DNA from: a virus
Virus record (IMG/VR): IMGVR_UViG_3300033145_001087
Location: 47,431 to 111,430 of that record
DNA: 64,000 bases
Direction: 5' to 3' (one strand)
Of this stretch, positions 51,511 to 61,564 are shown in pieces. The notes beneath the pieces are model-generated. The model was not told the DNA's origin, searched no databases, and saw only the letters and a program-made list of their open reading frames with translations. Position 1 is the stretch's first letter. Every line of letters begins with the position of its first letter. Both the position numbers and the translations under genes were made by a program.

Positions 51511-51765
51511 GTTGTCACCCTGTAGTAGTAACAGGGTCTGATTAACGCCGCCTCTTAGTAGTAGTGACACGGGCCTGAATGACGCCGCCTCTATACGGTG
51601 GTGACACCCTGGGCGTATGTGTTGTCCCTGCCTAGGGACAACGCCTTACCGAGGGTGTCGCCTCTTACCGGTGACATATACTACCCTTAGGTGGTTGTTG
51701 TCACGGGTGAGTAGTTATCACTACTTCTTAGTTGTGTCACGGTGTTATATTTTATAGTAGTTACA
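51511..51765. repeat. GC-rich ~36-bp-period degenerate repeat array (iteron-like) with nested stem-loop
   Basis: GTAACA/GTGACA/GGGACA at 51528, 51564, 51601, 51635, 51671; inverted TGTCAC at 51513, 51699, 51735; stem-loop 51600-51662. Confidence 0.7.
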
Positions 51766-51871
51766 AAATTACTGTATTTAAAGCTATCGAAATGTTTATA
51801 TAGTACCTGCATATTCTATACTCTAGTTGAGTATGAACAAAGATTTATACCAACTGGAGATATAAACAAAA

Positions 51872-52447
51872 ATGGCAAAAGCAAAAAAAGAATATGTGAG
51901 TATGAATGGAAAGAAAGTATTGTTAGACTTAAACGACCAGAAAGAAAACGATAGACCACATAAGTACTTTTGTGTAGACGCAGATTTTGGCAGTGATGTC
52001 GCAGAGAAGCTTAATCTAGCAGATACAACAATAAACCATGTATTCAATGAAGTAATGACACGTGGTTTAAAGTCGTTTGGTTTAGAGCCAGAAGCATATA
52101 ACTTCACACGCAGTATGCAGCCATCCATACGTAATGTTGGTAAACATCCACAGCAAGTTGCAGCGTATGGACTATTGATGAATCCACCAACACCAACGCC
52201 AGTAATCGCAGCAGATATTACACCAGCAACGACTAGTATATCACCACTGGCTCAAAAGTGGATAAATGGCTTAATTGCGACTATCAACCAAAAGATAGCA
52301 GAAAACCAGCCAATCAATGCACAGCAACTACGTAATGCAGTGGATGAAAAAGTGCCAGAAACTATCAGAGAAGTGGTATTTAGTGAATCGCTAAAAGCCA
52401 TACCAACCATTGCAGAAGCAAAAACGCCAGTAGACTTCAGTTTTTAA
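51872..52447 (+). CDS. 191-aa early protein ending PVDFSF
   Basis: Own promoter GAAATGTTTATATAG (~51789) and downstream oligo-T; similar termini to 56826..57464. Confidence 0.7.
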   Translation: MAKAKKEYVSMNGKKVLLDLNDQKENDRPHKYFCVDADFGSDVAEKLNLADTTINHVFNEVMTRGLKSFGLEPEAYNFTRSMQPSIRNVGKHPQQVAAYGLLMNPPTPTPVIAADITPATTSISPLAQKWINGLIATINQKIAENQPINAQQLRNAVDEKVPETIREVVFSESLKAIPTIAEAKTPVDFSF

Positions 52448-52830
52448 TAAACTGATATTTTTCTTTTTTTTTTACCAATCTTAAAAAATAAATGGAGTTG
52501 ATATAAATGATAGAAAAATTAAAACAACAAATAAAAGAATTTAATAAATTAGAAGAGACTGCACCAACAACAGAATTACACAATAAAATTATTGATGTTA
52601 CTTGTAGTATAGCGTCACTTATTGCAGAATTAGAAGAAGAACAAACAAAAGCCAATAAAATATTAAAATGGAGGTGATGCAAATGATTAAATGGATTGAA
52701 AACTTATTCAAACCAACATATTTGGACTGGATTGAATATGAAGCACGTATAAATATGCTGGATGATTTCCATTTCCAGCAGAAAGTCAGAAACAAAAACA
52801 TAAAAAGACTTTAATTTTTTTTTCTTCTTC

Positions 52831-52862
52831 TTGTCACGGGTAGGGAGTGACAATTTTTTTTT
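52831..52862 (+). terminator. hairpin plus T-tract (also a TGTCAC/GTGACA palindrome)
   Basis: TTGTCAC-gggtaggga-GTGACAA followed by T9. Confidence 0.5.
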
Positions 52863-53126
52863 GCGACAGAGTGACGCCGCTTTATTGCCCTTATTGATGT
52901 TATTGATAGTTCCGGGACTTCTGATGGTTTTGTTACTTAATAGTAGTAAATTCGGCTACTGACTGACGCCGGTTAGGTTGGGCTTATTGGCTTTTATTGA
53001 TGTTTCTGGGAGTTTGACCGCTCCGGGGCAATATTGACCGCACCGCTCCTCAACTGTCGTCAGGGCGTCCTAAGCCTAACCGCACCGCACCTATGCCCAT
53101 CCTATGACTACTCCTTAGTGACAATA

Positions 53127-53141
53127 GAAAGCTTTATATAG
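53127..53141 (+). promoter_or_regulatory. BRE-TATA promoter, early class
   Basis: GAAAGCTTTATATAG about 50 nt before 53193. Confidence 0.75.
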
Positions 53142-53192
53142 TGATACTATATATATACTATTATGTAGTAAAATCACTGCATGGAGGCAAAA

Positions 53193-53393
53193 ATGACATA
53201 CAGCATAAGACACGGAGAGTATAATGGGCATAAAACTATGTCTATTGATAAAGTGGAAGTAGGAAAGCGACCATTTAGCTTTACTTTTGGTAGGGCAAAG
53301 GCAGAGGCAGTAATAGCCAATATAGGAGCTATAAAGGCATTTATGGCGGAAACGGCTCCAATAGCAACACCACCAGAAAAGGTGGATATTTAA
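53193..53393 (+). CDS. small protein, possibly PC4-like nucleic-acid binding
   Basis: SD GGAGG; EYNGH..SFTFG..KAEAVIANI.AIKAF; fold is inference. Confidence 0.5.
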   Translation: MTYSIRHGEYNGHKTMSIDKVEVGKRPFSFTFGRAKAEAVIANIGAIKAFMAETAPIATPPEKVDI

Positions 53394-58867: not shown

Positions 58868-59007
58868 GTAAAATAAGAAGAGGAGAAGCAACTTGCCCAC
58901 AATGCGGTAGAGATATTATAAGAGTAAAATCAGGACAACGACTGAAAGCAAAAGGCTATCAAAGAGAAAGATGCCTTGTTTGCGGATATTACCTAAAAAA
59001 GAATTGA
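58864..59007 (+). CDS. 47-aa CPxCG zinc-ribbon microprotein (not in ORF track)
   Basis: CPQCG...RCLVCG; SD AGGTGA. Confidence 0.6.
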   Translation: MSKIRRGEATCPQCGRDIIRVKSGQRLKAKGYQRERCLVCGYYLKKN

Positions 59008-59544
59008 GGGAAAAAATGGGAACAATAAAAAAAGAAAAAAAAATAGTACAGGGAGAACTATTATTATCATCATGTAATCCTATTATTATAGAAACGGATT
59101 ATGATGGAACAATCTATATTTATAAAGGAGTTTATAAATAAGAATGAAACATTTTGTAGCACGGCACCTTGAAAGCCTTAAAATATTAGATTTATATTTT
59201 AAGTCTAAAAGAGAGGCTAAACAAAAAAACCCTACTCTAGTAGAGTGGGAAGAGGTGAGATAAATGGCAAAAAAAGAATACGGTTATTATCTAATAATAG
59301 GATTTGGAACCTTTAAAAATGCAAAAGAGACATTAAGTAAAAGCCATTATGTAGGGGATGTTGTTAAAATGACCAACAAACAAGCGGCAAAATTAGTAAA
59401 AAACGCAGTATATGAAAAACCTAAGGTGTTTAAATGATGAATAACATATTATGTCCTATACAATTTGGAGATTGTCCTGATTGTGAACACTACAAGGAAG
59501 GAGAATGTCAATACGAAGAAGAAAATAACCAAAACACCACTGCG

Positions 59545-59663
59545 AGGATGCATCCTAACGCACGTAAGCACTGATTTAAGCAGACTTTTTCACTTTAGAG
59601 TAGTTTAGTATCTCTAAAAAGTAGAGTCGCTTAAATCGACTCCCTGTGCGTTTGAGAGCATTG
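59545..59663. repeat. degenerate palindromic element, copy 2
   Basis: AGGATGCATCCT, then nested AACGCAC/GTGCGTT, GATTTAAGC/GCTTAAATC and TTTAGAG/CTCTAAA. Confidence 0.65.
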
Positions 59664-59951
59664 ATAATATGGAGGAAAAAATGGAAAGTGAATATATAAC
59701 CATTGAGTATGATGATAAATATGAATTTTTATCATCCTTAGTAGAAAGACGAATAGGAAAAGATAAAGATATAAAGGCGATTATAGTCTTATATGAGGAA
59801 TAAAAATGATAATACAACACATTAAATATGGATTCAAGGCAAAGTCAGTATCTATCTATCAGGGAACAGTAGTATTTGATACTTATGGATATGGTAGAGG
59901 ATGTTGTAGATTGGAGGATTTTAAAATAATAAAAGAAGGAGGGTAATAAAC

Positions 59952-61029
59952 ATGAAATTTAAAAAAGGAGATTTAGTAAGGGAAATAGAACAAGAAAGGT
60001 TAATTAAAAGGATATTTAAATGTTGTGAAGATATAGGAAAAAGATATAACAGTATCGAAGTAGCAACTGGGCATTATACTACTATAAAAGAGGGACTTCC
60101 TATACTTTCCATAGGAGAAGAAGACATCTACGAAATAGAGATTAAGTATTGTCCGTTTTGTGGTAAAAAGATTAAGATTGTATCAGGTTACACAGATGAA
60201 GAATGGAGGAAGAAATAAAAATGAAAAAACGAAAGGTAACAATCGACGATATAAAATATATAGAAAAATATGATGGAGGTATACCCTTATTTAATAATGT
60301 TAATTATAAGATTCATTTAAAAAACGGGGAAACCCAGAATGTTTATGACTTAGAAAAAAACCCAGATATTTGGTATAAAAAAGGGTATTTTGAATCACTT
60401 TATAGTATATCAGCAGGAGAATTCATACTTATTAGAATGGAAAGCGGAAGACGGGGATTATATAGGTTAATTAATGATGGATTTAATGGAGGGTCTGTTT
60501 CAAGACCATCATCACATTCAGGATATAAAATTTGTTATATGATTGACTTAAAAGCACAAGGAAAAGTAAAATAAGAACGAGGTAAAAATGACACCACATA
60601 ACCTTGAACAAAAATGCGACCATTTCTATATGGCACGGATACAAAAACATTCAGAAGAAACATTAGGAATACTTGCTCCTAAAACTACTGGATATGATGA
60701 TAATGGGTGTTATTTATGTGATGGGTATAATAAAGAGTGCCCATTGTATTTACGGTTAGCAGATTATAATTTTATTTTACAAGAATATCAAAACCTTGAA
60801 TTTGATAATCTTCAAAAAAATCAAAGAGGTGAATAAAATGGGAAATATAGGAAGAACAGTATGGGTAGTTATTGGGTGTATTCTTTTTGTTTTGTTTTCT
60901 ATGGAGGCAATTGTTTTAAGACCTCATAGTGCCCCACAACAAACTGTCCAGCAATTAATGTATATAAAAGGATTTTTATTATGTGGATTGTGTTTCCTTT
61001 TAGCACTGGTTTATAATAAGTCCGAATAA
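59952..61029 (+). CDS. four small hypothetical proteins (59952..60218 with YCPFCG; 60221..60574; 60588..60836; 60838..61029 with two TM helices)
   Basis: Consecutive ORFs with SDs. Confidence 0.55.
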
Positions 61030-61035
61030 ACAAAC

Positions 61036-61074
61036 GAAACATTTATAAAGCTATCTGTTTTAATAGCTTTATAA
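61036..61074 (+). promoter_or_regulatory. BRE-TATA promoter overlapped by a 12-bp inverted repeat
   Basis: GAAACATTTATAAAG; TTATAAAGCTAT (61043-61054) / ATAGCTTTATAA (61063-61074). Confidence 0.7.
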
Positions 61075-61192
61075 GTTATTGCATTATGCAAAACTGGGAA
61101 GAAGAGGTTGATTAATTGGAGTAAAGATAATATAGGTAACTTTAAATGTTGCCATATTATCTTTTTATTTAATTAAAAAGGAGGTAAATAAA

Positions 61193-61564
61193 ATGTCACT
61201 ACAACAGGAAATAACATTTAATATAGTTAAGTCAATACCAGTAGAACAAAGGACAGACGCTAAAATGAGTGAGGTAAAATATAAAGTATCAGATATACTT
61301 TTAACAAAATTAAAAGGGAGAGTTATCCCTACTTCTAAAATGTTACCAACACCAAGACTAGAAGGATTAAGATTAATGAGGGAAAATACCTTTCATACTT
61401 ATCCTAGAAAATTAAAAACAGATAAACAAAAATTCTTCCACCTTAAAAACTTATTTCAAACCAATAGTATTTCGAAAGAGATATTTATAGACTTACTTTC
61501 CGTTTTAAAGATTAAACAGGGACTGATTGACGCCGCTTTATGCCCTATTGAGGTGGTATTTTAA
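61193..61564 (+). CDS. hypothetical protein
   Basis: SD AGGAGGT; 123 aa; contains a TGACGCCG element. Confidence 0.6.
   Translation: MSLQQEITFNIVKSIPVEQRTDAKMSEVKYKVSDILLTKLKGRVIPTSKMLPTPRLEGLRLMRENTFHTYPRKLKTDKQKFFHLKNLFQTNSISKEIFIDLLSVLKIKQGLIDAALCPIEVVF

Follow-up and report, generated by a model that had tools for sequence, protein, structure and literature searches.

The closest described counterparts of the element analyzed here are the nick motifs of viral genomes. In phage tf, the motif TACT/RTGMC occurs as 14–17 copies of a 9-mer that lie on one strand only and are densest in the early half of the genome, with variants in its relatives, and in the archaeal pleolipovirus HRPV-3 the polarity of the discontinuity motif GCCCA follows transcription (PMC3517423, PMC3384331). 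We describe here an oriented, GC-rich word, centered on the octamer TGACGCCG, in a 64,000-nucleotide stretch of viral DNA (the window), which is the last 64 kb of the 111,430-bp IMG/VR virus record IMGVR_UViG_3300033145_001087 (GC 29.7%; G000 below). Satellite phage P4 offers a second point of comparison, since its ori and crr contain type I octamer iterons bound by its primase-helicase. Since related viruses carry it too, the G000 word is a real cis-signal; the observation is real, conserved and larger than first described, and the word is a variant within the known class of oriented viral genome words. The reading that we favor, with a probability of about 0.4, is a recognition site for a protein at the DNA level, in which arrays of the word would serve as the chief locus, resembling an origin or packaging site, with solitary copies as sites of strand-specific nicking or priming.

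Exact counting across the whole 111-kb genome identifies TGACGCCG as its most over-represented 8-mer, with nine copies on the plus strand against 0.06 expected and one on the minus strand. The initial annotation had listed six octamers (window 51580, 52872, 52964, 56115, 58096 and 61528) and the variant TAACGCCG at 51543, and had seen no further full copy. All seven positions are exact, and neither strand of the window contains another TGACGCCG. Its judgment that a chance origin was improbable also holds, with 0.09 copies expected in the window and none of 100 shuffles reaching six. Elsewhere in the genome, plus-strand copies lie at 9723, 15248 and 31126 and the sole minus-strand copy at 781–788, while TAACGCCG variants with the same flanks are found at window 51543 and at genome 19993 and 36955. 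Octamers and variants together number 12 on the plus strand and 1 on the minus strand (binomial p about 0.003), and k-mer counts on both strands of the full genome against a second-order background reveal strong enrichment (9+/1− for the octamer) instead of an even distribution over the two strands.

The octamer taken as the element by the initial annotation is not the conserved unit, which spans about 16 nt, from −5 to +10. Alignment of the copies places GA at −3/−2 in all of them, C at −5 and A/T at −4 in nearly all, S directly after the octamer and T at +10, and a logo of 27 sites from three genomes gives C-W-G-A-N-T-R-A-C-G-C-C-G-S-N-T. Long forms of the word are CAGARTGACGCCGGTTCRA and CAGARTGACGCCGGTTCGA, for an overall length of 16–19 nt. 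Two positions within the conserved 16-mer are not conserved, which fits protein contacts better than continuous base pairing. Nor are the copies confined to the 10 kb first viewed or spaced regularly at 2–3.5 kb: spacing is 2–11 kb, and all 13 copies fall within one arc of 49 kb (44% of the map) that runs from genome 98973 (window 51543) clockwise to 36955. This arc begins just downstream of terL and corresponds to non-structural genes. No copy was found in the structural block or in the 17-kb glycan/terL (late) operon, which is itself on the same strand.

Four of the copies lie in the two strongest GC-rich islands of G000, which reach 64% GC in a 30% GC genome. The island pair is intergenic, non-coding and rich in repeats and hairpins, and is located 1.8–3.3 kb past terL. 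Island 1 is built of 36–37-nt units, each consisting of the motif and a GTRGTGACAC box, and several long hairpins come after them (fold z −6.25). The copies cluster in the manner of iterons, two of them 37 nt apart in island 1 and two 92 nt apart in island 2. A strand asymmetry of island folding was considered and dropped, because folding is about as strong on one strand as on the other. A third stretch (genome 19993–20300), smaller but likewise non-coding and hairpin-rich, starts exactly at motif copy 19993. As side observations, this third stretch holds a TTAGGTGG...CCACCTAA hairpin and a GAGTAGTAAACTACTC hairpin, and the word TAGTAGTAA, which contains three in-frame stops, lies 4–14 nt upstream of island motif copies (window 51519–51550) and in the homologous units of G002, G006 and L154, three relatives introduced below. 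Together with the two TGA/TAA of the motif, TAGTAGTAA provides stops in all three frames where the structured islands begin.

Outside the islands, copies overlie coding sequence or gene junctions, and five of them are read x-Asp-Ala-x. Where W is T, the motif puts TGA in two frames, which leaves the GAC-GCC frame as the sole open one. Both codons are uncommon in G000 (GAC 21% and GCC 9% of their families), and of 89 Asp-Ala pairs, 7 are written GAC-GCC where 1.7 would be expected. The initial annotation had pointed out that GAGCAGACTGACGCCG is identical at 56107 and 58088 in unrelated genes, and that the 22-mers at 51530 and 61515 are alike. Both statements hold: the two open reading frames (ORFs) sharing the identical 16-mer match only in 14 residues around the motif and are otherwise unrelated, and the 22-mers agree at 20 of 22 positions. 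At genome 9723 and 19993 the motif furnishes the stop codon of the upstream gene (TGA/TAA; TAA at 19993), and several copies lie 20–54 nt ahead of the next start codon. A repeat driven by its peptide was rejected on the grounds of unrelated carrier proteins, rare codons and different frames in G006. We therefore find, from codon usage and from comparison of the genes, that the word is under selection as nucleotides and not as peptide, since its codons are rare, the genes that carry it are unrelated, and G006 has it in other frames and antisense; the strand can be either. The earlier view of a polar, nucleotide-level cis-signal laid over coding DNA is thus borne out by the rare codons, the 12:1 strand bias, the restriction to the non-structural arc and the non-homologous positions in relatives.

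Relatives of G000 were collected with a TerL search, which returned nine viral and many metagenomic sequences at 43–68% identity, most of them fragments that end short of the relevant arc. The form CWGANTRACGCCR is carried by G006, G002 and five contigs (L154, L158, L164, L165 and L168), the latter five with variants CWGANTAACGCCR; that of L168, at 43% TerL identity, lies inside a GC island. In G006 (109 kb), the motif CAGA[AG]TGACGCCGG occurs on the plus strand at 46606, 48522, 53242, 54086 and 65596 and on the minus strand at 48697, 50226 and 85578, and three of these copies extend to ...GGTTCG. Its core TGACGCCGG is the top 9-mer of that genome (4+3 copies against about 0.04 expected per strand). 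All G006 copies are located in the plus-strand non-structural block, from 1.5 kb past terL. An antisense copy in an ABC-ATPase-like ORF is spelled ACC GGC GTC ACT CTG, in GC-rich, rare codons. In one gene family, the word stands near the gene end in the window (61528); in G006 it is found mid-gene and in a different frame. There, MTPVRE in the G006 protein is aligned with MLPTPRLE in the window protein, and a motif copy takes the place of an AT-rich stretch of the homologous gene.

The 47-kb genome G002 has two GC-rich islands after terL, as in the window, with homologous repeat units that are inverted relative to terL. These islands contain CTGACTGACGCCGG and three variants, and the tally in G002 is four copies on the minus strand (the islands) and two on the plus strand. 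The islands of G002 and G006 alike keep their position, with an inversion, complete or partial, relative to the flanking genes. The top oriented 8-mer of G002 is CGGTTCAA (9+/0−, at 10.1–30.1 kb in terL orientation), which appears to be the 3' portion of the long form found in G006; at three of the nine sites, 7 or more of the 10 bases of its 5' half have been retained (p about 0.004 each). We note separately that CGGTTCAA in G002 is T-loop-like and that, in paralogous small genes, it frequently separates the ribosome site from the ATG. Motif positions are mostly non-homologous between genomes, and only the copy at the end of a 230-aa gene is common to G000 and G002. Comparing synteny breakpoints with motif copies, G000 against G006 and G002, revealed no clear coincidence, in genomes too diverged to decide the matter. 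A literature search for the octamer returned only primers, a loose gapped-pattern scan of viral contigs gave only chance matches in GC-rich contigs, and megablast of the motif region against GenBank phages gave no match. TerL and RadA searches of genome contigs yielded no useful provirus or close cellular homologue. As a further side observation, four large related contigs of 23–77 kb (G001, G003, G004 and G005) stop 0.7–4 kb downstream of terL, G004 within a GC island, which hints that this place could be a physical terminus, a repeat or a hypervariable boundary.

Compared with described systems, the nick motifs of the literature appear to match the statistical signature of the word best. Like the motifs of tf, phiKMV-like phages, T5 and HRPV-3, it is a short word of about 10–17 copies per genome that lies in both coding and non-coding DNA, is denser in the early half and has small variants in related viruses; in G000 it is also essentially on one strand (12+/1−). 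Unlike them, the G000 word is longer (16–19 nt), is arrayed in GC-rich islands, and is absent from the structural block, not merely rarer there; nick systems are strictly one-stranded and have no island arrays, while G006 has the word on both strands. The G000 sequence itself is a metagenomic assembly. With the P4 iterons it shares a repeat that is centered on an octamer and grouped into two clusters between genes, about 1.3 kb from each other, with a 36–37 bp period and adjacent hairpins; its orientation is direct and, in relatives, also inverted. Contrary to P4, G000 has nine more solitary copies over about 49 kb, inside genes and on one strand.

The favored reading accommodates these likenesses as follows. 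The asymmetric 16–19-bp word would be read on DNA by a sequence-specific protein common to this virus group, and this protein would be virus-group-specific and either DNA-binding or DNA-cutting. The island pair past terL would constitute the main locus, an origin- or packaging-type array, and the solitary same-strand copies across the next ~49 kb, with its early, accessory and replication genes, would be secondary sites of a strand-specific event. For this event we favor site-specific nicking or strand-specific priming, as at the tf, phiKMV, T5 and HRPV-3 nick motifs. We infer the DNA-level reading, its performance by a viral protein and the role of that protein; reading on DNA appears most likely in view of the inverted islands in relatives, the rare-codon antisense copy, the lack of conserved RNA structure, the two free positions and the arrays. 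Candidate readers predicted from the genome are its AEP primase (genome 2693–3229), two HNH endonucleases (13096–13860 and 22217–23185) and the NUMOD3 endonuclease (25351–26013); a small conserved protein encoded past terL and ahead of the islands (window 50102–50458) is a further candidate. The AEP primase of G000 is 56–60% identical to its counterparts in both relatives (G002 and G006).

Several observations weigh against this proposal. The extended motif in G006 is distributed 5+/3−, a weak strand bias next to the strictly one-stranded nick systems known. Dispersed intragenic copies are uncommon for origin iterons or packaging sites, and GC skew reveals no replication-type shift at the islands (51–53 kb). 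Finally, copies embedded in coding sequence are about 12 sense to 1 antisense over the three genomes, a ratio that a signal acting on RNA predicts equally well.

Such an RNA-level signal in early and middle transcripts is a serious rival to reading on DNA, although we consider it doubtful. It could be a site where transcripts are processed, where a regulator of translation or stability binds or where a guide RNA pairs, and would regulate or punctuate long polycistronic messages. Besides the sense bias, it would account for the limitation of the motif to non-structural transcription units, for the several copies that lie 12–50 nt upstream of the next Shine-Dalgarno sequence and ATG or at the preceding stop (9723 and 19993), and for the placement of 56115, 61528 and 31126, which resembles that of the gene-end copies 9723 and 19993; the conserved 12–16 nt also fall in the range of guide–target duplexes. 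However, the motif has no conserved local secondary structure and no Rfam family. A conserved hairpin was dropped because RNAalifold predicted 0 pairs over 21 motif-centered segments, and a known RNA family was dropped because Rfam 15 gave no match at the gathering threshold and, at E ≤ 10, only chance-level matches, none of them on a motif copy. In G002, and in part in G006, the islands with their copies run antisense to the transcription on either side; the rare codons of the G006 antisense copy imply selection on the opposite strand; the word has two free internal positions; and it is missing from the 17-kb late operon, which lies on the same strand. An antitermination or loading site, proposed initially, is unlikely: the distance from promoters varies from 50 to >900 nt, and, unlike nut, put and ops sites, the word has no fixed place in an operon leader and no conserved pairing or RNA hairpin, with no copy in that long late operon. 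A side result of the Rfam search is a sub-threshold match to caiA RNA at window 61127–61195 (33.7 bits against a gathering threshold of 55.5; E 0.015), probably due to chance.

A different origin is suggested by tRNA. The long form CAGARTGACGCCGGTTCGA corresponds to tRNA positions 39–58, that is, the 3' strand of the anticodon stem, the variable loop, the 5' strand of the T-stem and the start of the T-loop; in the form comparable with tRNA, the word is written CAGA-N-TGACGCCGGTTCGA. A 21-mer with the T-arm completed is present in genuine tRNA-Gly(UCC), Gln, Cys and Glu genes of unrelated viral contigs, and tRNA-Gly(UCC) also has the preceding CCAGA with one base fewer, so that the long form is identical to that stretch bar one extra base. 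Such tRNA 3' halves are found in attachment sites of integrating elements. The word may descend from part of a tRNA, or its reader may be one that also reads this tRNA stretch. As att-like recombination repeats descended from the 3' half of a tRNA gene, the copies would mark the boundaries of gene cassettes gained or exchanged between them, an explanation that we regard as improbable. It draws on the tRNA match itself, on CGGTTCAA as the T-loop half in G002 with its partly kept upstream halves, on longer flanks shared by the G000 pairs 51543~61528, 56115~58096, 52872~9723 and 19993~36955, and on an arc rich in small ORFs not shared with relatives. Yet these flank-sharing pairs interleave and do not nest, and several copies are not insertion scars, since the genes in which they lie continue, without loss of homology, across the motif. 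Integrase att sites were dropped, since the genome has no match to PF00589 (tyrosine integrase; serine recombinases were not searched for). The copies also lack a cloverleaf, the T-stem 3' strand and the acceptor, and most in G000 have C at the tRNA-invariant G53. Without a T-stem partner and with C for G53, they therefore do not function as tRNA; a tRNA gene or pseudogene had been dropped likewise, as ARAGORN made no call at any copy and no complementary T-stem strand lies downstream. Very improbable, in our estimate, is the polar signal for host machinery advanced by the initial annotation, a Chi-like nuclease modulator or a translocase-orienting word. The G000 word resembles the bacterial Chi, KOPS and ops-type words in being oriented, over-represented and laid over genes, and its recurrence every few kb and its conservation across diverged viruses would fit a conserved host reader. 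But at 16–19 nt with free positions it exceeds known Chi or KOPS words, being twice as long as words of this kind (read by RecBCD/AddAB, FtsK and RfaH), and it is clustered in one arc, with mixed orientation within islands. The virus, moreover, looks archaeal (RadA, PCNA, RFC, BRE/TATA promoters), while a Chi-like site needs RecBCD/AddAB-type machinery; we know of no Chi/RecBCD-type system in archaea, nor of archaeal counterparts of RecBCD/AddAB, FtsK or RfaH that read such words. The specific mechanisms proposed initially are unsupported. Least probable of the readings weighed here is that the word mimics the 3' half of a host tRNA (39–58), present in sense in many early messages and in the island arrays, where it would bind or titrate a host factor; candidate targets are a guide-RNA methylation complex, a tRNA-directed defense nuclease or a tRNA-gene-binding protein.

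The genomic setting of the word is as follows. Structural genes (portal, tape measure, large tail proteins) occupy the minus strand at genome 45.8–81.8 kb, and the remainder is a single plus-strand block that runs from 81.85 kb through the glycan operon and terL, across the record ends, to about 45 kb. This block codes for a Rad51/RadA-type recombinase with an HhH domain, PCNA, an RFC-like clamp loader and a family-B DNA polymerase, and also for the AEP primase, NrdD/NrdG, a CCA-adding enzyme, an RNA ligase, an N6/N4 DNA methylase, a QueC-like protein and, as nucleases, the two HNH endonucleases and one NUMOD3 endonuclease. Strong archaeal-type promoters (CGAAAnnTTTATATA, often followed by AGAAGT) stand at the heads of transcription units on both strands, and ribosome sites are GGTGA/GGAGG. 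G000 is probably an archaeal virus with an archaeal host, given RadA, PCNA, RFC, the BRE/TATA promoters and these ribosome sites. A 114-bp direct terminal repeat (genome 1–114 = 111317–111430; window 63887–64000) falls inside a 277-aa ORF that spans the junction. This placement makes it an overlap from the assembly of a circular or permuted map rather than a repeat at physical termini, and a reading of the word as lying near a genome end was consequently dropped.

A promoter reading was dropped as well: looking for a purine-rich BRE and a TTTATATA-type box about 25 nt upstream of a start, we found no TATA-like box at a fixed distance from the motif, and the BRE/TATA promoters lie elsewhere, at no fixed offset from it. 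We note that the promoter consensus is very strong, (A)CGAAAnnTTTATA(T/A)A, at window 34411/34424, 51785, 53123, 54173, 56754 and 61032 and at genome 13130, 21470, 25307 and 44275. Most of these promoters continue with nnAGAAGT, which is missing from the post-island promoters 51785 and 53123 and from several in the small-gene region, and this suggests two promoter classes, possibly differing in timing. The QueC-like protein (genome 32953–33546; Pfam E 2e-12) adjoins the clamp loader and NrdD and may be connected with base modification. No TGT/DpdA was found in the G000 genome, and a 7-deazaguanine insertion site was dropped as an explanation of the motif despite the QueC-like gene. Further strand-biased, over-represented words of this genome, TCTGTAGC (10+/1−), AGTTGTTCC (7+/0−) and TAACCGTTC (6+/0−), lie mainly within the minus-strand structural block but on the plus strand (e.g., genome 51104–72983) and are mostly antisense to late genes. 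Coordinates of terL, the islands, their boundaries and the motif copies in the window are given in Table 1.

Table 1. Features around the word, in window coordinates.
Feature	Position	Strand	Context
terL	48032..49705	+	
Island 1, non-coding	51493..51745		between end of terL operon and promoter at 51785
Motif copy, CTGAT-TAACGCCG-CCT, island-1 unit 1	51538..51553	+	
Motif copy, CTGAA-TGACGCCG-CCT, island-1 unit 2	51575..51590	+	37 nt past unit 1
BRE/TATA promoter TCGAAATGTTTATATA	51785..51804	+	boundary after island 1, separate from motif
Hairpin and T9 run, likely transcription terminator	52831..52861	+	directly before island 2
Island 2, non-coding, up to 64% GC	52862..53122		ends at promoter 53123
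Motif copy, CAGAG-TGACGCCG-CTT	52867..52882	+	start of island 2, 10 nt past T9 run
Motif copy, CTGAC-TGACGCCG-GTT	52959..52974	+	island 2
BRE/TATA promoter TAGAAAGCTTTATATA	53123..53142	+	boundary after island 2, separate from motif
Motif copy, CAGAC-TGACGCCG-CTT, read T-D-A-A	56110..56125	+	ORF 55933-56136, 14 nt before stop; next ATG 31 nt on
Motif copy, CAGAC-TGACGCCG-GTT, read T-D-A-G	58091..58106	+	inside ORF 58031-58300
Motif copy, CTGAT-TGACGCCG-CTT, read I-D-A-A	61523..61538	+	near end of ORF 61193-61564; next ATG 36 nt on

Tailed archaeal viruses of this size are, to our knowledge, known almost only from metagenomes, with no cis-acting DNA signals of theirs defined. G000 offers a sharply delimited 16–19-bp word with selection and polarity, a conserved array locus near terL, and copies in several relatives. 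The word is a direct experimental handle on the replication, packaging or processing machinery of this group. A mimic of the host tRNA, if true, would represent a novel type of virus–host interface in archaea. If, as in the reading that we favor, the sites are nicks, the unexplained programmed nicks of T5, phiKMV, tf and the pleolipoviruses would extend to large archaeal tailed viruses.

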